From the sequence record OR062945.1: a stretch of DNA of 64,000 nt. One strand, 5' to 3'. The notes under the pieces were generated by a model. That model ran no database searches. It saw nothing but the letters and a program-made list of their open reading frames with translations, and had not been told where the DNA came from. Each line of letters opens with the position of its first letter. Within the stretch, counting starts at the first letter, position 1. The DNA is from Escherichia phage 308Ecol101PP. Position numbers and translations under genes: made by a program. This document shows, piece by piece, positions 7,468 to 57,824 of this stretch.

Positions 7468-7800
7468 ATGTCTACTAAAATCAAAAACGTAGTTAATTCT
7501 TTCGCTTTCGATAAAGTTGTTGCTCTTCTGGAATCCGGCAATATTGTTACTCCTCAAGTCCTTGACGCGTGGGAATTCCGTCTTTATGAAATCATGCAAA
7601 AACACGACCAGAAAATTGGACGTAATTCTATTCGTGAAATTCTAGTACAATATATTCTTTCTGAATTTGACGTTGCTGCATTTGGTGTTGAATCTAAAGC
7701 TTATCAGAAACATGAAATCTCTGAAAAGACTATCCGTCGTATGAAAAATCAACGTAAGAAAAAATTCGTTGACCTGAAAATTGTTAAGGCGGTAAAATGA
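7468..7800 (+). CDS. hypothetical protein
   Basis: Track ORF 7399..7800 starts inside the promoter element; ATG 7468 has GAGGAAAATAAT upstream. Confidence 0.45.
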   Translation: MSTKIKNVVNSFAFDKVVALLESGNIVTPQVLDAWEFRLYEIMQKHDQKIGRNSIREILVQYILSEFDVAAFGVESKAYQKHEISEKTIRRMKNQRKKKFVDLKIVKAVK

Positions 7801-8024
7801 GCGTATTAACAGAATCTTTGATTAATGACCTGCGTCTAGCTGGTTACGAAGTTGGTACAAATAGCCTAGGTCTTTCTCAGATTGAAGGGCTTGGATTTAT
7901 CCTAGAATATGAATTCAAACAATGGTGGCTATATGCTACGGCTGACGATGCGTTGAATATCGATTTCGTTGACCAATTTGATTCGTTGGATGATGCTCTT
8001 GAAGCAGCAAAGGAACTAGAATGA
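7797..8024 (+). CDS. hypothetical acidic protein
   Basis: 75-aa ORF, ATGA overlap with previous gene. Confidence 0.45.
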   Translation: MSVLTESLINDLRLAGYEVGTNSLGLSQIEGLGFILEYEFKQWWLYATADDALNIDFVDQFDSLDDALEAAKELE

Positions 8025-9907: not shown

Positions 9908-10927
9908 ATGAAAATTTTGCACTTAGGCGACTTCCATATCGGAGTCAAACAAGATGACCCATGGGTTCAAGATATTCAACGTGATGGTATTCGTCAAGCA
10001 ATTGAATACTCTAAGAAACACGGGATTAAAACTTGGATTCAGTACGGTGATTGGTTTGACGTCCGTAAAGCAATAACACATCGTACAATGGAATTCAATC
10101 GTGAAATCGTTGATATGATTTCTAAAGCAGGCATTCACGTTCATGTCACGATAGGAAACCACGACATGGCGTTTAAGAATACAATAACACCTAACACTGT
10201 TTCTGAATTGTTAACTCAATTTGAAAACTTTACTATTTATGAGCATCCAACTACTGTAGATTTTGACGGATGTCTGATTGATATCGTTCCATGGATGTGT
10301 GAAGAAAATACGGGTGAAATCTTAGAGCACATCAAGACTTCTTCTGCTGCGTATTGTGTTGGGCACTGGGAACTGAATGGCTTTTATTTCTATAAAGGAA
10401 TGAAGTCTCATGGGCTTGAACCTGATTTCTTAAAGACCTATAAACAAGTCTGGTCCGGCCACTTCCACACAATCTCTGAAGCTGCTAACGTCAAATATAT
10501 TGGGACACCATGGACCCTTACTGCAGGTGATGAGAACGACCCGCGCGGATTCTGGGTATTTGACACTGATGTTGAACGTATGGAATTTATTCCTAATGAA
10601 ACAACATGGCATCGACGAATCACTTATCCATTTAAAGGCAAAATCAATTATTCTGATTATACTAATCTAGCCGTACGTGTTATAGTATCAGAAATTGATT
10701 CAGAGTTGACTAAGTTTGAATCTGAACTTGAAAAAGTAGTTCACTCTCTTCGTATGGTTTCTAAAGTTGATAACAGTGTTGAATCTGATGACGACCAGGA
10801 AATCGAGATTAAATCACTTCAAGATATCATTAAAGAATATATTGACGCGATTCCAGATATCTCAGACGAAGACAGAGAAGCGCTGGTCAAATATTCCAAC
10901 GAACTTTATATTGAGGCAACACAATGA
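9908..10927 (+). CDS. 47: recombination nuclease subunit gp47 (Mre11-like)
   Basis: 339 aa, phosphoesterase motifs (DFHIG, GNHD, GHWE); matches T4 gp47 from memory. Confidence 0.9.
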   Translation: MKILHLGDFHIGVKQDDPWVQDIQRDGIRQAIEYSKKHGIKTWIQYGDWFDVRKAITHRTMEFNREIVDMISKAGIHVHVTIGNHDMAFKNTITPNTVSELLTQFENFTIYEHPTTVDFDGCLIDIVPWMCEENTGEILEHIKTSSAAYCVGHWELNGFYFYKGMKSHGLEPDFLKTYKQVWSGHFHTISEAANVKYIGTPWTLTAGDENDPRGFWVFDTDVERMEFIPNETTWHRRITYPFKGKINYSDYTNLAVRVIVSEIDSELTKFESELEKVVHSLRMVSKVDNSVESDDDQEIEIKSLQDIIKEYIDAIPDISDEDREALVKYSNELYIEATQ

Positions 10928-11181
10928 CTTTAGATGAATTTAACAATGCTGGACTCGGGCTTGAAGTTGAAATAGACGTTAAAGATGATGATGGATTCGA
11001 GAACACTATCAAGTATTGGATTGAGCCATTACGCGTTGAAGGCAATGAAGTTAAAGCAGTTCATGTCTGCACAGACTGGGCTATTGAATTTAGCTTTAAT
11101 ATAATGGACAACGATACTCCTGGCTCTATTCTTAAAATGGCTGAAGCGTGTATTGAGGACGCGTATAATGACGAAGACTGA
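10924..11181 (+). CDS. hypothetical protein (46.x locus)
   Basis: 85-aa acidic ORF between 47 and 46. Confidence 0.45.
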   Translation: MTLDEFNNAGLGLEVEIDVKDDDGFENTIKYWIEPLRVEGNEVKAVHVCTDWAIEFSFNIMDNDTPGSILKMAEACIEDAYNDED

Positions 11182-11407
11182 TTATGAAATCCATCGTCAT
11201 GAATTTAGTATTGGTGACGGTTATATTGGTGTCGTTGAATGGACTGAGAATTACGAGGAATCAACTCCTCGTTTCTTTGGAACAATGTATGTTACCTGTG
11301 AGTACGCGCCAGGTGTTGTTATTTATGCAGAACTAGATGAATATTTTGCTGATAGAGATGACATGTTAAAATATGTAGAGGACTTCATTCGAAGAGAATA
11401 CATATGA
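11168..11407 (+). CDS. hypothetical protein (46.x locus)
   Basis: Track ORF 11153..11407; ATG 11168 chosen to limit overlap. Confidence 0.4.
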   Translation: MTKTDYEIHRHEFSIGDGYIGVVEWTENYEESTPRFFGTMYVTCEYAPGVVIYAELDEYFADRDDMLKYVEDFIRREYI

Positions 11408-19300: not shown

Positions 19301-19936
19301 ATGAAAACTACTCCTATTACTATCGCTATTGACGCAATCATAAAACAAGCTTCTTCTTTGGCCGCTATGGCCAAAGTAATTAGTCAAAACCCTGCTCGTT
19401 ATAATGCTATTCTAGAAACTCTTCGACGCCCAGGACTTAGTAATTATGAAAGCCGAGTAATTATTACAGGTGTTGGTAAGAATGCTAATATTGCAACTAA
19501 AGCTTCTGAGACATTTGCTTCACTTGGTATCCCGAGTATGTACTTGAACACTGGGCATTATTCTCACGGTGATGCAGGATTCATTGCGCCTAATGATGTG
19601 TTGATTCATATTAGTCGTTCTGGTAAAACTGAAGAAATGATAGGCGTGGCTAAGCATCTTAAAATGATTCGTCCGAACGTCAAACAGATTCTGTTGCATT
19701 GTAACCCGGACATTCCACAAGAATACGAAGCTCTTTTTGATTATACGTTCTGTACAGGCATCGCAGTAGAGGTTGATGAGAATTCTCTGGCTCCGACCAT
19801 GTCCACTACATTGTTGTTAGCGCTTATCGATACGTTTGCTATCAACCTTTCGTCTGAACGTGGATTTACCTCTAATGACTTCCTTAAGTTCCACCCTGGT
19901 GGTGCACTAGGTGCCATGTTACGAGGCGAACAATGA
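19301..19936 (+). CDS. SIS-domain sugar-phosphate isomerase (KdsD/GutQ-like or GmhA-like, no CBS domains)
   Basis: 211 aa; SIS-like pattern GVGKNANIA...SRSGKTEE and C-terminal HPGGALG, characteristic of arabinose-5-phosphate isomerase SIS domains. Confidence 0.7.
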   Translation: MKTTPITIAIDAIIKQASSLAAMAKVISQNPARYNAILETLRRPGLSNYESRVIITGVGKNANIATKASETFASLGIPSMYLNTGHYSHGDAGFIAPNDVLIHISRSGKTEEMIGVAKHLKMIRPNVKQILLHCNPDIPQEYEALFDYTFCTGIAVEVDENSLAPTMSTTLLLALIDTFAINLSSERGFTSNDFLKFHPGGALGAMLRGEQ

Positions 19937-20076
19937 AAGCAATAACAATAGGACTTTTACTATTGATGCTTGTCATGACTATCTACTGGAGCTTAACGGC
20001 TCCAGTAATGATTCCGACTCTTATAATCGGATGGATTATGATTGGACTACAAGCAAAGTATGAATGCTTTAACTAG
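19933..20076 (+). CDS. hypothetical small membrane protein (47 aa, not in ORF track)
   Basis: Hand-translated ATG 19933 (ATGA overlap) to TAG 20074-20076; almost entirely hydrophobic. Confidence 0.35.
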   Translation: MKAITIGLLLLMLVMTIYWSLTAPVMIPTLIIGWIMIGLQAKYECFN

Positions 20077-20117
20077 AATAGTGTACAATACTCCTACTTA
20101 CCAATGAGGACCACAAC

Positions 20118-21803
20118 ATGAAAAAAGCTGTTATTCTTGGTGCTGGACTGGCAACTCGTTTGTATCCAATAACGCATCATATTCCTAAGGTGCTTGTTAA
20201 CTATAAACAAGACACTATTCTGAGCAATTTGTATACAATTTATTCTGACCTTGGCGCAGATGAAATTATTGTAGTAGTTCATTCAAAATTTGCTGAAACT
20301 GTTCGAGCTTATTGTGAGCAAGAAGGGTTCAATGTGACTATTCGTACAGTTGATGAAGCGTATGGTTCTGCTTATGCTCTTGCTAAATTGCACAAAGATT
20401 TAGACGGCCATAATGTAATTGTTAACTGGTGTGATATTATTCCTGATTTTGGTTCGTGGTCTTGGAATGTTAACGCAATCTATGTTAAGGGTGACGAATG
20501 TCGATATAATTTCGACGGTGAAAATATCACTAATGTAGGTTCAACAGGTGGTAATGTTGTAGGAATTTATCAGTTCAAAGACTGGGAATTCTATATGGGT
20601 TCTACTGATGAGGAAATTCATGAATACTGCAAAGGACGTGATTTCGTAGAATTCCTTTACGGCAGCGCATTCAATAAATCAGAGCTTATGAATCTAATTG
20701 ATTTAGGTGATATGCCTAAACTTGAAAAAGCTCATGAAGTTCGTGAACTTAATCGTAGTTTTAATGCAGTTGAAATTGGTGAAGAAACTGTAACTAAATT
20801 CGCATTAACCGAACAGGGCCGAGCTCTTCAGAAAGATGAGATTTCATGGTATCTTAAAGTGAAATCAGATTCAGTTCCTCAGTTAGTTTCTGTTAATGAA
20901 AATAACTTTGAAATGGAACGCATTAAAGGTAAGCCGGCATTTGAATATATTAAATCCAAATCAAGTCTTGCTCGTCCACAAATTGTTGATGCAATTTTAG
21001 ATGCACTGAAATTCAGCACAGACACTTATTTTGTAAGTCCTGAAACTGTTCGTCGTGATTTCACTAAAGAATTCTATACTAAAGTTATTGATCGTTGTGA
21101 AAGTATTCAACCATTGATTGATTCATTTGGTAAAATCACACATGTGAACTACACTAAGATTGGGCGTCTGAAGCCAATGTTGAAACAAGCTTTAGAACAC
21201 CTTATTCGTTATCATAACCGTTCTCAGGGACAGTACTCTGTTATTCATGGTGACCCGAACTTCAGTAATACTATGATTACTGATAATGGTGAAGTCAAGT
21301 TTATCGACCCTCGTGGATATTTTGGTGAAACCAAGATTTATGGGCCAAAATTGTATGATGAAGCTAAAGTGCTTTACGCTGTTTCAGGTTATGATGAATT
21401 CAACGCTAATCCGACTTGGGGACAGTTTACTATTGATGAAACAACTTGTAATGTGACTATTAACATCAATCCGTTAGTTTACAAATATGGAAAGATGAGT
21501 TCGTTTAACGAGTATCATCATTTGGCAGTGGCAATTATCTGGATTGCATTAGGTGGTTATTTCAAGAATAATCCACTTAAAGCGGTAGCCGCATATTATA
21601 AAGGTATGGAACTTCTGACTAAGCAATTACGTAATATGGGCCGTGTACTTCAGGACGGCACTATTAGTTATGATGTAGCAGAACCTGTAACGGCTACTCT
21701 GATTACAAAAAATCCTGGTAAATGGGTACTAACTGATAAAGAAACTGGTGTTTCTTATCGTCCAATCGGTGGCGATATCACTCATCAATGGGAACGAATC
21801 TAA
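20118..21803 (+). CDS. bifunctional sugar-1-phosphate nucleotidyltransferase / kinase-fold protein
   Basis: N-terminus ILGAGLATRLYPIT resembles the G-x-G-T-R motif of sugar nucleotidyltransferases; C-terminal HGDPNFSNTMI...KFIDPRG resembles the catalytic loop of APH/choline-kinase-fold kinases. Confidence 0.7.
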   Translation: MKKAVILGAGLATRLYPITHHIPKVLVNYKQDTILSNLYTIYSDLGADEIIVVVHSKFAETVRAYCEQEGFNVTIRTVDEAYGSAYALAKLHKDLDGHNVIVNWCDIIPDFGSWSWNVNAIYVKGDECRYNFDGENITNVGSTGGNVVGIYQFKDWEFYMGSTDEEIHEYCKGRDFVEFLYGSAFNKSELMNLIDLGDMPKLEKAHEVRELNRSFNAVEIGEETVTKFALTEQGRALQKDEISWYLKVKSDSVPQLVSVNENNFEMERIKGKPAFEYIKSKSSLARPQIVDAILDALKFSTDTYFVSPETVRRDFTKEFYTKVIDRCESIQPLIDSFGKITHVNYTKIGRLKPMLKQALEHLIRYHNRSQGQYSVIHGDPNFSNTMITDNGEVKFIDPRGYFGETKIYGPKLYDEAKVLYAVSGYDEFNANPTWGQFTIDETTCNVTININPLVYKYGKMSSFNEYHHLAVAIIWIALGGYFKNNPLKAVAAYYKGMELLTKQLRNMGRVLQDGTISYDVAEPVTATLITKNPGKWVLTDKETGVSYRPIGGDITHQWERI

Positions 21804-22189
21804 TGCACCGTGTAAAAAACATGCTTAATCTTTGTTTTGATGTCGATGATTGTATAACAGAGTGGAATAACAATCGTGATTACGTGAACTTCAAACCAGA
21901 CGTCGAAATGGTGTCTGCCATTAATGCCCTGTATGATGCAGGGCATACCATAACGCTTTACACTGCTCGCGGTATGAAGTCAGTAGGTCCTGGTCGTATA
22001 GCAATTGACATTCTCCCAAGTCTGATTCAGAACTTGGCAAACATTGGATTGAAGTACCATAATTTGCTAACACATAAACCAGTATATGATTGGATTATCG
22101 ACGACAAAGCTATGCGTCCTGACGAATTCAAAGCTCTTATGAATAAAGGCGAATTCGAAACATTTAAATCATATAAACCGAATCTATAA
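21803..22189 (+). CDS. HAD-superfamily phosphatase
   Basis: 128 aa with HAD motif I (FDVDDCIT); TAATG overlap with upstream gene; track start 21788. Confidence 0.6.
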   Translation: MHRVKNMLNLCFDVDDCITEWNNNRDYVNFKPDVEMVSAINALYDAGHTITLYTARGMKSVGPGRIAIDILPSLIQNLANIGLKYHNLLTHKPVYDWIIDDKAMRPDEFKALMNKGEFETFKSYKPNL

Positions 22190-22235
22190 TAATTTAAGTA
22201 AGACCTGCAAAAACCATCGCATCAATTAACGTGGG

Positions 22236-23411
22236 ATGCAAAAAAAAAAAATGAATACTTTTAAAATCGGAACGAATTTTGATTTAGCTCTTCTTGATAA
22301 AATCGTAGAGCTCAATAAAACTTATCCTAATAGCTTGATAAACGAAGTATACGGCTCTACAAGAGAAATGGCTTTTGTAGCAGCCAGACCTGATTTTAGG
22401 CTTCCTGACGTTGACAAAAAGATGTTAGAAGATTACGTTAAACGTTGTAACGAATTAGGTATTTGCTTTAACTATACACTCAACACGATAAATCCTGGTT
22501 CAAAAAGAGAACTAGTTGAGTGGAAGAAGAAAGCTATTCAGGATTATGTTCAGTATCTTTGGTCAATAGGCGTATGGCGTATTACTATCGCTAACCCTGT
22601 TGTTATGGAAATTGTTCGTGAAGTCAATAAAGACATTGAGATTGAAGTTTCAACAATTCTACATGTCGATGCTGTAACTCAAATCAAATACTTGCATGAC
22701 CAATATAATATCAAAAAGGTCTGCTGTGGAATTCATAAGAACCGTTCAGTTTCTTTCCTGAAACGTGCAGCAGAGTTTTGTAATAAGAACAATATAATAT
22801 TTGAAGTTCTTGTAAATGAGTTCTGTTCTAATGCTGGTAAAGGGTACACAACACATTGTAGCTATCGTGACTCTTGCTATATTTTCCATAGCACCGATGT
22901 TACAGTAGATGATGCCAAATCCTTAAATGGATATCCAATGCAACACTGTATTAAAGCTCGTGATACAGATCCATTTAACTGGTTGAGAACTCGTTTTGTT
23001 CGTCCTCAAGATTTGAAACTTTATAATGATATTGGTATCACTCAATTTAAAGTTTCAGGACGTACAGGTAGCACCGACTACATTTTAAAAGTTCTTGAAG
23101 CTTACGCTTCTGAAAAGTTTGAAGGTAATTTGTTGGAATTGTGGAAGCCTTTAGAGACCATTTTCACTCTTGAAAATGAGACTGAGTTTTCACATACGGT
23201 AAATATTGAAACCTCTTTGTTAGACGGCTTTTTAGAAAAAAGGTGGTTCAAACATCCAGATTTCGATTGTGCTAATGAAATCTGCGGGACGACGTGTACA
23301 TATTGTGAAAGATATTATAAACGTCAGTTATCTAAAAATGGGTTATCAGAAAACTCTATATCTATTATTGATATAACTAACTCTGATGACGCTTTGAGGT
23401 ACCCAGAATGA
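22236..23411 (+). CDS. hypothetical Cys-rich protein (start at ATG 22236 or 22251)
   Basis: 391 aa with many Cys (CCGIH, EFCSNAG, HCSYRDSC, CANEICGTTCTYCE); an A12 tract lies between the two candidate ATGs. Confidence 0.5.
   Translation: MQKKKMNTFKIGTNFDLALLDKIVELNKTYPNSLINEVYGSTREMAFVAARPDFRLPDVDKKMLEDYVKRCNELGICFNYTLNTINPGSKRELVEWKKKAIQDYVQYLWSIGVWRITIANPVVMEIVREVNKDIEIEVSTILHVDAVTQIKYLHDQYNIKKVCCGIHKNRSVSFLKRAAEFCNKNNIIFEVLVNEFCSNAGKGYTTHCSYRDSCYIFHSTDVTVDDAKSLNGYPMQHCIKARDTDPFNWLRTRFVRPQDLKLYNDIGITQFKVSGRTGSTDYILKVLEAYASEKFEGNLLELWKPLETIFTLENETEFSHTVNIETSLLDGFLEKRWFKHPDFDCANEICGTTCTYCERYYKRQLSKNGLSENSISIIDITNSDDALRYPE
22240..22251 (+). repeat. homopolymeric A12 tract at the 5' end of the Cys-rich gene
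   Basis: ATGCAAAAAAAAAAAATG read directly from the sequence. Confidence 0.8.
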
Positions 23412-23493
23412 TTTCTAGAAAAACTTTTAACCACCAACTTAACGAAGAGATTTTGACTATTAAAATTAACAGCAACGAACAAATTCTTAAAAA

Positions 23494-23513
23494 GGCCCTT
23501 ATGGGCCTGTTTG
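23494..23513 (+). terminator. candidate weak terminator hairpin
   Basis: GGCCC-TTAT-GGGCC followed by TGTTTG. Confidence 0.3.
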
Positions 23514-23645
23514 AAACTAAAGCGGCTAAAGTGATTAAAGAAACCTGTTCAACTAGAATACTACGCTGATGCATTTCTTCATAGTGTTCTTGGAAATATC
23601 GATGCTGAAGCTTTACGTTATATCAACATCGCTAAGAAATTCAAA

Positions 23646-23671
23646 TAAGCTTTATGAATTGAGTATATAAT
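23646..23671 (+). promoter_or_regulatory. candidate MotA-dependent middle promoter upstream of gene 42
   Basis: AAGCTTTA box, then 11 nt, then TATAAT (23666-23671). Confidence 0.4.
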
Positions 23672-23689
23672 AACTGTATTGAGGTAAAC

Positions 23690-24406
23690 ATGGGAAAACA
23701 TAACACAATGAAATATATTAAAGCCGCAGATTTTCAATCCGCATTTAAAGCTGTCAATCGTGAAATTTTAGAAAATCCACAGTTCGTTACTGATTCTCGT
23801 ATTGGACGTTGTAATGAAATTGGGTCTATGACAGTAGTTGTTGATACCCCTTCATCATTCAAAATGACCGACCCACGTATTAATCGCATCTCTTATGAAT
23901 ATGCTGAAGATTTCTGGAAATTTATGATTTCTGGTGGTACTGATGCAAAAGAAGCATTTAAGGCATATCCTAACGTTGCTAAATTTATTTCTAAACCTAA
24001 ATCAGACGCTTTGCCTGCAAACTTCAACACTTTCTATGGTCCACGAATTGCGGCCCAGTTACCAGCTCTTCTCAAAGAACTTAAAGAGAAACCTAATTCA
24101 CGAAGAGTTGTGTTTCAAATTCTTGAAAGTTCAGATCAGGCTTTGCTTGATTCGGATGAAACGCTTGAATATCCATGTACTGACTCAGTGACTTATTATA
24201 TTCGTGATGGTAAGCTTTATACCCACTGTCATATGCGTTCTCAGAACTGTGCTGTTGTTATGCAGTTGGATTTTTATCTCCAAGGAAAATTACTTCATTA
24301 TATCGCTAACGAATGTGGTGTAGAAGTTGGTGATTATACTCATACCATGGTAAGTGCCCATGTGTTTGAACGTGATTTTGATTATGTTAAAGGATTCCTT
24401 GACTAA
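23690..24406 (+). CDS. 42: dCMP hydroxymethylase (thymidylate-synthase fold)
   Basis: 238 aa; TS-family pattern SRRVVFQIL ... YPCTDS (catalytic Cys) ... QLDFY (Asp 31 residues after the Cys, as in cytosine-specific members). Confidence 0.7.
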   Translation: MGKHNTMKYIKAADFQSAFKAVNREILENPQFVTDSRIGRCNEIGSMTVVVDTPSSFKMTDPRINRISYEYAEDFWKFMISGGTDAKEAFKAYPNVAKFISKPKSDALPANFNTFYGPRIAAQLPALLKELKEKPNSRRVVFQILESSDQALLDSDETLEYPCTDSVTYYIRDGKLYTHCHMRSQNCAVVMQLDFYLQGKLLHYIANECGVEVGDYTHTMVSAHVFERDFDYVKGFLD

Positions 24407-25305
24407 TGGCTATTTTCCGCGTACCTATCTTGAGTATGCGGTCTTATGAAACTGGACAGTATGCTATCCTTAAGGATGGCAACTTCCAACTTCATTTGCA
24501 CCGTGCTAATCCGGGTGATGTGATTACATATCCACGTAATGCATCTGATATTAAAGAATGCGAACGTCTTTTTCCAGAATTTAAGTTTGTTCCATTATGG
24601 TATAAAGATAACGCGTATAACACTCGTAAATATTTCTGGTCTGAAAATGAATTTGTGGTTGATTCATTAATTGCTTATTATGATTGTGATTTTCTAATCA
24701 CAGATATCACTGGATATGACGGCGCTTTTGATGTGGAATTCAATTTCAATATCACTGCAGACCCTAATAAACCACGTTTTTATATTGACGAATTCTTAAA
24801 AACCGACATGTTGTCGGTTAATCGTTCACTTCAAACTACTGTGTTGAATGAACGTCAAAAAGAAGTGCTGGTTAACGCAGGTGCAGATGGTAATAAGATT
24901 ATCGTAACCCAGAAAGTTATACGTCCTTCCATCATGCAGCGTCTTGTAGGTGATTTGGCTCCTATTCATCTAGATGGTATTTTTCATCCATTTCGAATTA
25001 GTGACCCGTGCTATCGTTTTGAACAAGTGGTTGAATGTGCAATTCAATTAGGTCAACCGCTTTATATAACTGATCCAAATAATAGTTTCGACAGAAATAA
25101 GTATCCTGAAGAAGCGCTGATTCGAATTTTTAATCCAACTAAAACTGAGTACTATCAAATTCTTAAAGGACGTCCGAAGATTCAATATTTCGAAAATCCT
25201 GAAGAAGTATTCCATCCAGGTCTTGGTGAGTTCATCTACTTTAATGCTTTAATTTCTTCGCCGTATAATATACCTAAATACGAAGATGTCGTAATCGAGG
25301 AATAA
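24406..25305 (+). CDS. hypothetical protein at the locus where T4 encodes beta-glucosyltransferase
   Basis: 299 aa, TAATG overlap with gene 42; no resemblance to T4 beta-GT that I can see. Confidence 0.5.
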   Translation: MAIFRVPILSMRSYETGQYAILKDGNFQLHLHRANPGDVITYPRNASDIKECERLFPEFKFVPLWYKDNAYNTRKYFWSENEFVVDSLIAYYDCDFLITDITGYDGAFDVEFNFNITADPNKPRFYIDEFLKTDMLSVNRSLQTTVLNERQKEVLVNAGADGNKIIVTQKVIRPSIMQRLVGDLAPIHLDGIFHPFRISDPCYRFEQVVECAIQLGQPLYITDPNNSFDRNKYPEEALIRIFNPTKTEYYQILKGRPKIQYFENPEEVFHPGLGEFIYFNALISSPYNIPKYEDVVIEE

Positions 25306-25306
25306 A

Positions 25307-25855
25307 ATGGTTAAAATTATTTTAGTAGATGGCCCGGATAATGCCGGTAAAACAACTTTCATTAATGACATAATGGAAATTAGTGAAAGATATGTAAAGA
25401 TTGATTTCCCTAAACGAACAGTTGATGGACGTTTCGATGTTAAGTCTCGAAATGAAGTTGGCTGTTTCGAAACGATGTTGAATTATTTAGACCCTACTAA
25501 GATTTATCTGTTAGACCGTGGATATATTAGTAACTGGGTTTATGGACGTATTCGACAAGATGCGGACTCGGTTCTTGACGTTTATGAACAGGATTATGTT
25601 CGTCTTTGCCAAAACCATGATGTGTTCACAATTATTTTAACACGTAACGAAATGACTGAAAGTTTTGAAGACGACCTTATTACTTTGTCTTCATTCGGTT
25701 TTAATACAGTCATTTCATATTTTGAAGAGTTTGCAATTCATAACAAAATCCAAACGTATCAATTACTTAATCATGACGGTGCTAACAAAGTTATAGGATT
25801 TAATGCAAGCGAACGTAATTATTTGATTACAGAAATTATCAAATGGGCTCGTTAA
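25307..25855 (+). CDS. P-loop nucleotide kinase, thymidylate-kinase-like
   Basis: 182 aa; Walker A VDGPDNAGKTT and DRGY motif as in the Tmk family. Confidence 0.55.
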   Translation: MVKIILVDGPDNAGKTTFINDIMEISERYVKIDFPKRTVDGRFDVKSRNEVGCFETMLNYLDPTKIYLLDRGYISNWVYGRIRQDADSVLDVYEQDYVRLCQNHDVFTIILTRNEMTESFEDDLITLSSFGFNTVISYFEEFAIHNKIQTYQLLNHDGANKVIGFNASERNYLITEIIKWAR

Positions 25856-54989: not shown

Positions 54990-55018
54990 GTTTACATGTG
55001 CTTCAAACATGATATTAT
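54990..55018 (+). promoter_or_regulatory. early promoter (GTTTAC, 17 nt, TATTAT) upstream of motA
   Basis: Followed by the TAGACCTATCAA motif. Confidence 0.5.
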
Positions 55019-55057: not shown

Positions 55058-55690
55058 ATGTCTAAAGTTACTTACATCATCAAAGCTTCTGAAAACGCTC
55101 TGAATGAAAAAACTGCTGCAATAATGGTTTATATCATTAAGAACAACTTCACCACTGCTGCCAATGTCCGTGAAGCTCTGGAAGCAGAATACAATGCATC
55201 GGTTGTTAACTCTAACATTGGTGTATTGATTAAGAAAGGTTTAGTCGAAAAATCTGGTGATGGACTTGTAGCAACAGGCGAAGCAATGGATATTATCCAA
55301 AAAGCTGCAGACCTCTTTGCCCAAGAAAATGCTCCAGAACTTCTTCAGAAACGTAACACTAGAAAAGCACGTGGAGTTACTCCTGAAATGCATGAATTAG
55401 CAAACTTTGTTTTTGAAAATATTAAAGATAAAGTTGAAGTTAAAGAAATTGGTGAAAACCGTAGTAACTTGGAAGTTCGATTCGCTAAACGAGTTCTAGG
55501 CATTCGCCAAATTGAAATTCGACGAGATGGCGCTCTTAGAATCTTTGCATACAACATGTCAGAAACTGAATCAAAGCTGTTTACTTCTCTTGAAAATGAT
55601 GTTAAGATTAAGATCGGTGGTAAATATACTTACATTGACTTCCCTAATGTGTCCAAAGAAATCATTACCCTTGTAACTAACGTACTGTGA
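55058..55690 (+). CDS. motA: middle-transcription activator MotA
   Basis: 210 aa starting MSKVTYIIKAS with SNIGVLIKKGLVEKSGDGL; matches T4 MotA from memory. Confidence 0.85.
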   Translation: MSKVTYIIKASENALNEKTAAIMVYIIKNNFTTAANVREALEAEYNASVVNSNIGVLIKKGLVEKSGDGLVATGEAMDIIQKAADLFAQENAPELLQKRNTRKARGVTPEMHELANFVFENIKDKVEVKEIGENRSNLEVRFAKRVLGIRQIEIRRDGALRIFAYNMSETESKLFTSLENDVKIKIGGKYTYIDFPNVSKEIITLVTNVL

Positions 55691-55700
55691 GGAATACATA

Positions 55701-56030
55701 ATGAATAAGCTGAATATTATTAACGAACTTCGTAAATGTGCAGAACCTACTCAGGAAGGATGGGATATTTGGTACCACGGGGCTTATTTAGGGACAATTG
55801 TAAAGATTAAAGCAGGCCAATATACGGTTATTCGTGAAAATAATGACGCGCCATTTGGCCTTCGTAAAAACTACATGGCAGCGATCAGTTCATTTGTTGA
55901 TGCAGCTTACGAAATCTATAAAGAAGATTATAAAGAATATCAACAGTCACAACCGGTTATTCGTTCGATTGGTGTAAATAAACAAGCACAAAAATCTATT
56001 TGGCAACGTATTAAGGAATGGTTTAAATGA
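55701..56030 (+). CDS. hypothetical protein
   Basis: 109-aa ORF. Confidence 0.45.
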
Positions 56031-56488
56031 AAACTTTTAAAGAACGTTTAGCTCTGTTAGATAAAGCTTTGTCGCGTGAGACTCCGGAAAGTCTAGCTGC
56101 TAAATTAGCTTCTTACGGTGGTGAATATACAGAACAAAATGTTTTAGATGAAGTTCCTGAAATCTGTTGGCAGACTCTGTATTGGGATGAAAACCAAAAG
56201 TATCAACGACGAATTGTCTGCGCAGCCAACCGTTTTAAATTAAAAGATGGACGAACTCTTATTATTCCAGGTGCTCGTCATTACTCTAAAGATATGGCTG
56301 AAGTACTTGATATAGTTGGTCCTCAATTAGTCTCGCAACAAGTTTGTGGCGACGACCAAGGCTTTATCGACCAATACTCTAATTACTGGACGCGTGAAGA
56401 AGCAATGATTATTGCAACGTATGCTGGACAGGTACGTATTGAACGTGGCGGAAGTGAGAAAGAACTTTATTCAGAGGACCTTTATTAA
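56027..56488 (+). CDS. hypothetical protein
   Basis: 153-aa ORF. Confidence 0.45.
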
Positions 56489-56769
56489 TGAATATTAAAC
56501 AACTCCAGATTGATGCTATTGAAGCCCACATTAATCATATCAAACGCCTGAATGCTATGATGGAAGAAAATTATGGTATGTATGCTAATCAGCCTGGTTG
56601 GGATGCTTTAGACCATCCTTATTTGGTTAATTTATGTAAAGGTGACACGTTAGCAATTATTCGTGATGGGTTAAAACCTTTCTTGCGTGACATGTATATT
56701 AAAATGAACGAAGAAATTATTAGCTCGTTGCAATATCAATTAAGGAAATTAGACGATGAGAATAATTGA
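56488..56769 (+). CDS. hypothetical protein
   Basis: 93-aa ORF. Confidence 0.45.
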   Translation: MNIKQLQIDAIEAHINHIKRLNAMMEENYGMYANQPGWDALDHPYLVNLCKGDTLAIIRDGLKPFLRDMYIKMNEEIISSLQYQLRKLDDENN

Positions 56770-56980
56770 TTCTAAAGTAGATTATTTTAATTCCGTTAAT
56801 GATAAGAATAAAGCTTTAATTCGCCACTTTATTACTGAGATGGGTTATACCGACTCTAAAGATTTGAAAGAGCACATTATCGAATGTTCTGTGGCTAAAA
56901 AGTTTTCTTTCACAGACAAATGTTTAAACGAGGTTATAAAGCATTATGAACAATCTTGTAGCAAAACACGATTTCAATAA
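56756..56980 (+). CDS. hypothetical protein
   Basis: 74-aa ORF. Confidence 0.4.
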   Translation: MRIIDSKVDYFNSVNDKNKALIRHFITEMGYTDSKDLKEHIIECSVAKKFSFTDKCLNEVIKHYEQSCSKTRFQ

Positions 56981-57054
56981 GGCTTCCGTCCATAAGGACA
57001 AAAAGAAATCAGAACTTCAATCTAAACGTAAACAAAAACATAAGGGTAAAGACT

Positions 57055-57354
57055 ATGCTTACTAAAATCAAAGAAAATCCTGCCACTGAACTTGTTATTC
57101 GATGTGAAGAACTTGCAGAGCTTTATCAGGTTAACCGAGAAGTGTGTCGTAGTGTTATCGTAGATATGGAAGATGAAGTCTGTTCTCGAATTGAGTTTAG
57201 TGTTGATTTCAGTCATTCTAAACCCGGTGAAATCACTATCGTATTTGGTTCTGACTACACTGAAGAACAGGCTCTTAATGTCTTAGAATATGAAATGTCA
57301 TTCTTTGACATACAGGACTACATTGATAGTTATAAGGAACAATATGAGTCATAA
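57055..57354 (+). CDS. hypothetical strongly acidic protein (possible DNA mimic)
   Basis: 99 aa, Asp/Glu-rich throughout; lies between motA and asiA where T4 carries arn. Confidence 0.4.
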   Translation: MLTKIKENPATELVIRCEELAELYQVNREVCRSVIVDMEDEVCSRIEFSVDFSHSKPGEITIVFGSDYTEEQALNVLEYEMSFFDIQDYIDSYKEQYES

Positions 57355-57505
57355 TCTTCAGAACGTAGTAGAGGCCGAACGTGAGCGTGAGGCTTTAGTC
57401 TATAATGAACTATTAGTTCAGTTCTTGGCCTTACACTCGTACGAACAGGAAGACTATACCAATTACGTTAAAAGCGTAGAAAAAGCTGTTTACAATCAAC
57501 ACTGA
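57344..57505 (+). CDS. hypothetical protein (53 aa)
   Basis: Internal ATG of track ORF 57290..57505. Confidence 0.3.
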   Translation: MSHNLQNVVEAEREREALVYNELLVQFLALHSYEQEDYTNYVKSVEKAVYNQH

Positions 57506-57551: not shown

Positions 57552-57824
57552 ATGAATAAAGACATTGAAATCGTACGTGAAATTATTACTATTGCTTCTA
57601 TTTTGATTAAATTCTCTAGGGAAGATATTGTTGAAGACCGAGCAAGTTTCATCGGATTCTTGAATGAGATTGGAATTAAAAAAGATGGTCGGCAGCTAAA
57701 TCAGAATTCTTTTAGAAAACTAATTACAAATTTAACTGCCGAAGAAAAGAAAACACTGATTAGTGAATTCAATGAAGGTTTTGAAAATATTTATCGTCAT
57801 TTAGCGATGTATTCTAACAACTAA
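57552..57824 (+). CDS. asiA: anti-sigma70 factor AsiA
   Basis: 90 aa, MNKDIEIVREIITIASILIKFSREDIVE...; matches T4 AsiA from memory. Confidence 0.85.
   Translation: MNKDIEIVREIITIASILIKFSREDIVEDRASFIGFLNEIGIKKDGRQLNQNSFRKLITNLTAEEKKTLISEFNEGFENIYRHLAMYSNN

Follow-up and report, generated by a model that had tools for sequence, protein, structure and literature searches.

Among the early proteins of bacteriophage T4 is Arn, which is not essential, inhibits the restriction of non-glucosylated T4 by McrBC and binds H-NS; its structure suggested DNA mimicry (PMC12707154; PMC6070864). A 2026 preprint describes binding and blocking of the PUA-Cal-HAD defence by T4 Arn, an activity lost by the single substitution N70S, and reports that the Arn proteins of T4 and T2, which differ at three residues, are nevertheless unlike in PUA-Cal-HAD inhibition (PMC12871103). 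T7 Ocr, ArdA and lambda Gam are small, strongly acidic, early proteins of phages or mobile elements that take the place of DNA at the binding sites of defence enzymes (PMC12707154). The role predicted below for a protein of Escherichia phage 308Ecol101PP resembles theirs, but they possess other folds and are non-homologous to it, with no sequence or structural match to any of the three being returned by phmmer against the PDB or by structure searches.

The protein in question is the 99-aa product of an acidic open reading frame (ORF) within a 64,000-nt stretch of the phage genome (OR062945.1), referred to here as the window. Among known proteins it is closest to T4 Arn (PDB 3WX4; Pfam PF22134, DM_Arn), at approximately 17% identity, a relationship missed by both BLASTP and the Pfam model. 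With a probability of roughly 0.7, we regard it as the Mosigvirus-type Arn, a fast-evolving positional ortholog that keeps the Arn fold (approximately 90–100 aa) and charge and would act as a DNA-mimic decoy.

Gene neighbourhood of the 99-aa ORF

The 3.5 kb surrounding the ORF is 97–98% identical to many RB69-like phages (genus Mosigvirus), and contains the following features:

54991..55018, + strand: putative sigma-70-like promoter, the best one ahead of the gene string, from consensus match (TTTACA-16-TATTAT, extended -10 TG)
55058..55690, + strand: motA (Pfam MotA_activ, E = 2.4e-39, and MotCF; 51% identity to T4 MotA)
55701..56980, + strand: tightly packed homologs of arn.4, arn.3, arn.2 and arn.1 (109, 153, 93 and 74 aa; BLASTP against T4)
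56946..57065, + strand: 39-aa lysine-rich ORF, pI 10.1 (DUF7230, PF23876, E = 5.4e-13; PHROG 1359)
57042..57046, + strand: Shine-Dalgarno-like motif AAGGG seen in the sequence 8 nt before the ATG of the 99-aa ORF, putative in function
57055..57354, + strand: intact coding sequence of the 99-aa acidic protein, ATG start and TAA stop
57344..57505, + strand: 53-aa ORF in the asiA.1 slot (PHROG 5245), annotated as a 162-nt coding sequence in relatives
57552..57824, + strand: asiA (Pfam AsiA, E = 2.4e-32; 73% identity to T4 AsiA)

The gene order in the window is motA, arn.4, arn.3, arn.2, arn.1, the 39-aa ORF, the 99-aa ORF, the 53-aa ORF, asiA and t/38/37, and is colinear with that of T4 (motA, arn.4, arn.3, arn.2, arn.1, arn, asiA.1, asiA, t). 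The 99-aa ORF has the location typical of Arn, between arn.1 and asiA.1/asiA in the motA–asiA early region, and is the exact positional ortholog of T4 arn. A first-pass annotation of this DNA had placed a 99-aa ORF between motA and asiA, in the interval where T4 encodes Arn. The ORF is present and intact, and Pfam matches to both flanking genes confirm its placement between them. The region named was also right, but imprecisely drawn, since T4 arn occupies one slot between arn.1 and asiA.1, and it is in this slot that the 99-aa ORF lies.

By BLASTP, the arn.4, arn.3, arn.2 and arn.1 homologs are 75, 81, 41 and 79% identical to their T4 counterparts and the t gene of the window is 75% identical to T4 t, the 99-aa ORF being the sole gene of the motA-to-t string without BLASTP similarity to its T4 counterpart. 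A slot that is approximately 17% identical to T4 amid conserved neighbours (flanking genes 41–81% identical) suggests an arms race with one or more host targets. The asiA.1 slot is likewise fast-evolving, the 53-aa ORF resembling T4 AsiA.1 only weakly (BLASTP E = 0.003, 50% over 20 aa) and being mildly acidic (net charge -5). Its ATG lies inside the final codons of the 99-aa ORF, an overlap that suggests translational coupling. The 39-aa ORF, for which T4 has no counterpart in the same slot, overlaps both arn.1 and the 99-aa ORF, with its final 11 nt covering the start of the latter. Overlaps of this kind on both sides are usual for the densely packed early genes of T-even phages.

The 99-aa ORF is a genuine conserved coding gene. 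It is carried intact by 178 phage records (tblastn against a phage collection), and comparison to five orthologs showed differences mostly at the third codon position (e.g. 3/5/11 and 3/5/13 for the three positions), with 9–12 synonymous codon changes per comparison and synonymous changes equal to or exceeding non-synonymous ones. The N-terminus M(L/I)TK is kept by relatives even at 29–35% identity. The protein matched PHROG 8202 (E = 1.1e-53, residues 1–96 of a 96-position profile) and is approximately 91% identical to RB69ORF259c, and is thus a member of the RB69ORF259c/PHROG 8202 family, from which it shows no difference of substance and to whose copies in approximately 165 phage records it is 77–100% identical.

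The promoter at 54991..55018 may drive early transcription from motA through to the 99-aa ORF. Early expression is deduced from this extended -10 promoter and the uninterrupted same-strand string from motA, and from nothing else. A promoter and terminator scan of the region returned sites no more frequently than in shuffled sequence and found no MotA-box middle promoter upstream of the ORF, so the timing of its expression is read from operon-like packing only.

Remote homology to T4 Arn

Direct searches did not connect the 99-aa protein to Arn. BLASTP against T4 Arn gave no match at E values up to 100, the DM_Arn model gave none even at E values up to 10, so that the protein falls short of the gathering score of 26 bits, a Pfam search of the protein returned no family, and phmmer against PDB sequences found nothing. 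When the whole window was searched using T4 Arn (tblastn) and an Arn-family HMM, only chance-level matches were obtained, which indicates both that no T4-type arn is located elsewhere in the 64 kb and that direct methods are blind to the 99-aa protein. A profile–profile comparison (hhalign) of a narrow seven-sequence family of the 99-aa protein with the Arn family gave a probability of 3.5%. The word-indexed homolog searches had supplied close relatives only, six for the 99-aa protein and 11 for Arn, and the weakness of this first comparison is explained by the narrowness of both retrieved families. Members of the T4-type family are 67–97% identical, most of them at least 87%, and the DM_Arn model was built from a very narrow set.

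More distant relatives provided the connection. Using tblastn, relatives of 32–34% identity were located in the same slot of the Gaprivervirus phages VR25, PSD2001 and TH54. An exhaustive HMMER search of 1.84 billion proteins with the profile of the 99-aa family then recovered a 91-aa metagenomic protein, P0021 (E = 4.9e-7), which on its own contig is positioned directly upstream of a 42-aa ORF, asiA and a holin gene and therefore also occupies the arn slot. P0021 aligned end to end with the 99-aa protein (29% identity, 89 aa, E = 9e-15) and with T4 Arn (33% identity, 90 aa, E = 7e-11), and in tblastn searches of the phage collection it matched T4 arn and the Mosigvirus-type (Mosig-type) genes alike. 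The DM_Arn model itself scores P0021 at 16 bits (E = 0.015), compared to 186.7 bits for T4 Arn. Four other proteins from the HMMER scan, P0019, P0020, P0022 and P0023 (346–1879 aa, with 5–14 matched stretches each), were set aside as repeat or compositional artefacts, P0023 proving on inspection to be an unrelated repeat protein.

With the intermediates added, hhalign of the two families rose to a probability of 92% (E = 5.9e-7 over 85 columns), and a control comparison with P0021 left out gave E = 2.1e-4. Similarly, hmmsearch of 177,635 distinct PDB sequences placed T4 Arn (3wx4_A) at the top with a full-length, colinear alignment at E = 1e-6, the next sequence being at 0.65, and 3wx4_A was still first when P0021 was omitted (E = 1.2e-3). 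A joint alignment of the four allele types (T4-type, Mosig-type, Gaprivervirus-type and P0021-type) is colinear with small gaps only. Conserved across all four are L20, Y31 (Cys in the 99-aa protein), G58, L74 and a C-terminal acidic D-Y motif, and acidic columns 37, 88 and 91 (D37, D88, D91) are common to all four groups. Homology to T4 Arn is therefore detected by sensitive sequence methods, through profiles and through the transitive links provided by P0021, and the 99-aa protein is very probably a highly diverged Arn homolog or ortholog.

Predicted structure and charge

An AlphaFold2 model of the 99-aa protein, produced with templates off, had a pLDDT of 87 and a pTM of 0.74, and showed a predicted order of secondary structure elements of beta-beta-alpha-alpha-beta-beta-alpha-alpha. 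Foldseek against the PDB returned the Arn crystal structure 3WX4 as the top match (probability 1.00, TM 0.63/0.64, 90 columns). Other near-full-length matches directly beneath it had TM scores below 0.4, and no other exceeded 0.5 among the matches listed. 3WX4 was the best match of the model in two independent structure searches, and the model has the same fold as the 3WX4 monomer. Lower Foldseek matches to the Prp protease/YsxB-like family, DCoH, RNA polymerase subunits and metallochaperones had TM scores below 0.5 or partial coverage and were rejected as generic alpha/beta similarity. In BFVD, the model matched uncharacterised proteins of 86–92 aa from Klebsiella phages AmPh_EK29 and KP179 and Escherichia phage EcS1, with TM scores of 0.54–0.73 and only 14–17% identity.

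The protein contains 7 Asp and 16 Glu against 4 Lys and 4 Arg, corresponding to a net charge of -15 and a pI of 4.15, and its acidic residues (23% of the total) are distributed along its length, with 16 of the 23 located in the four predicted helices. Strong net negative charge is a trait of Arn, and is found also in T4 Arn (-9, pI 4.55), P0021 (-12) and the VR25 relative (-15). Compared to T4 Arn, the 99-aa protein is the more acidic and carries a C-terminal extension of about seven residues (SYKEQYES). The first-pass annotation had described the protein as rich in Asp and Glu along its length, which the composition bears out, had suggested from composition and position an Arn-like identity, and had proposed structure prediction as a check. 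That prediction has now been run with Arn 3WX4 as the best match of the model, and the suggested identity is supported by the slot, the P0021 links, the profile comparisons and the predicted fold.

Allelic variation and exchange at the arn slot

At least four allele classes, the four types aligned above, occupy one slot. In the Tequatroviruses phiD1, slur14 and AugustSocin, the arn slot is filled not by T4-type arn but by a Mosig-type allele 89–95% identical to the 99-aa protein. Two barely related arn alleles are exchanged between genera while their position stays fixed, and this replacement argues that either allele can stand in for the other functionally, independently of which DNA modification a phage carries.

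Within the family of the 99-aa protein, amino-acid differences cluster at residues 31–56 and 72–81, and the variable residues may, judged from the alignment, form a specificity-determining surface. The 99-aa protein has Cys31 where nearly all relatives, T4 Arn included, have Tyr, and differs from most relatives at four more residues, E39 (A39 in most), E47 (P47), S53 (N53) and S55 (M55). Residue 72 is a further variable position.

A broader and more tentative reading is that the arn slot constitutes a hypervariable anti-defence locus with at least four allele classes, scarcely recognisable as related, which pass between genera through recombination, with the Mosig-type allele directed at different or broader targets than T4 Arn. 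In place of McrBC, such targets might for example be PUA-Cal-HAD-like systems, or type IV or glycosylase-type defences that act against cytosines bearing arabinose or glucose.

Proposed function

Given its homology, charge and position, the 99-aa protein most likely acts like T4 Arn, and by analogy it would most probably mimic DNA early in infection and thereby inhibit McrBC-type restriction or other defences that bind DNA. Under this proposal it would be expressed early, together with the other genes of the same-strand string from motA to asiA, and in the manner of T4 Arn would serve as a stoichiometric acidic decoy, probably dimeric. The decoy would fill the site at which host defence or nucleoid proteins bind DNA, the candidates being McrBC-type modification-dependent restriction first and then possibly H-NS or PUA-Cal-HAD-type systems, and incompletely modified phage DNA would be protected as the outcome. 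The spectrum of the protein may differ from that of T4 Arn, and literature searches found no functional study of the RB69/Mosigvirus Arn allele.

The two phage types differ in the modification of their DNA. RB69 DNA carries arabinosyl-5-hydroxycytosine, for which the arabinosylation genes have been described (PMC13326640), and this base is used by the phage type that encodes the 99-aa protein, whereas the phage of T4 Arn uses glucosyl-hmC. Within the window, the corresponding genes lie in a cluster:

19301-25855, strand not given: RB69-type DNA hypermodification cluster at the T4 beta-gt position

The cluster contains a SIS-domain protein (arabinose-5-P isomerase-like), a 561-aa nucleotidyltransferase, a 391-aa Peptidase_U32-family protein and a 238-aa thymidylate-synthase-like protein, and by analogy with RB69 would fit arabinosylated 5-hydroxycytosine DNA.

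The alternative that survives best, although we consider it rather unlikely, is a homolog with the Arn fold that has moved to another target, such that McrBC is no longer inhibited, or not mainly, and the protein acts instead on a type IV enzyme that reads arabinosylated 5-hydroxycytosine, on a PUA-Cal-HAD-like system or on H-NS only. The RB69-type arabinosylation genes of the window would be in keeping with such a shift (PMC13326640), as would the low identity of the slot to T4 (approximately 17%) relative to its neighbours (41–81%), the presence of at least four allele classes and the clustering of family variation at residues 31–56 and 72–81. The precedent of T4 and T2 Arn, which with three differing residues diverge in PUA-Cal-HAD inhibition (PMC12871103), points the same way. 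However, fold, size, charge and slot have all been kept, and the Mosig-type allele that replaces T4-type arn in Tequatroviruses is not bound to the arabinosyl modification.

It is far less probable that the 99-aa protein is simply small, acidic and early without being related to Arn, engaged for example in host takeover or in binding RNA polymerase as AsiA and MotA are, and that a widespread alpha/beta fold, acidic composition and position make it resemble Arn by coincidence. Against such a coincidence, 3wx4_A was ranked first among the 177,635 PDB sequences in a full-length colinear alignment at E = 1e-6, P0021 is significantly similar to both families, two structure-search methods ranked Arn first, and the slot is identical. 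That the ORF is spurious and no gene at all can be discounted, as the small size and the overlaps with adjoining ORFs, which are all that favour it, are outweighed by its intact state in 178 genomes, the third-position bias, the PHROG match at E = 1e-53, the confident fold prediction and the Shine-Dalgarno-like motif.

Annotation of the Arn family

The Mosigvirus-type Arn reading supplies a probable function for a gene that is called hypothetical in most of approximately 178 T-even genomes, including RB69 and several phage-therapy candidates. The RB69ORF259c family is without an assigned function in PHROGs, RefSeq and most GenBank records ('hypothetical protein'), while the annotators of AugustSocin (Bas38) had already named their copy Arn. 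Many GenBank and RefSeq records, along with PHROG 4452, instead call the neighbouring arn.1–arn.4 'anti-restriction nuclease', a label that apparently reflects propagated gene names and not evidence of function. The annotation can be corrected on this point, as the neighbours are labelled and the actual counterpart of Arn is not.

The curated Pfam family DM_Arn spans one narrow branch of Arn only, and the BFVD matches suggest that the reach of the Arn fold within Straboviridae may go far beyond that family. The diverged alleles at this fixed slot offer a natural panel for the evolution of DNA-mimic specificity, with McrBC, H-NS and PUA-Cal-HAD as the targets of interest, which is relevant to the prediction of phage host range where defence systems are present.

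Other acidic ORFs of the window

Among the 94 ORFs of 60 aa or more that the 64-kb window contains without overlap, the 99-aa protein ranks third by net charge per residue, behind 10924..11181 and 7797..8024, and thus lies in the acidic tail without being unique. Three further ORFs are small and very acidic, namely 10924-11181 (85 aa, net charge -17, PF25721 T4_Y03C), 7797-8024 (75 aa, net charge -13, DUF5495) and 11168-11407 (79 aa, net charge -11, DUF5487), and these are possible additional candidates for mimic or decoy proteins.
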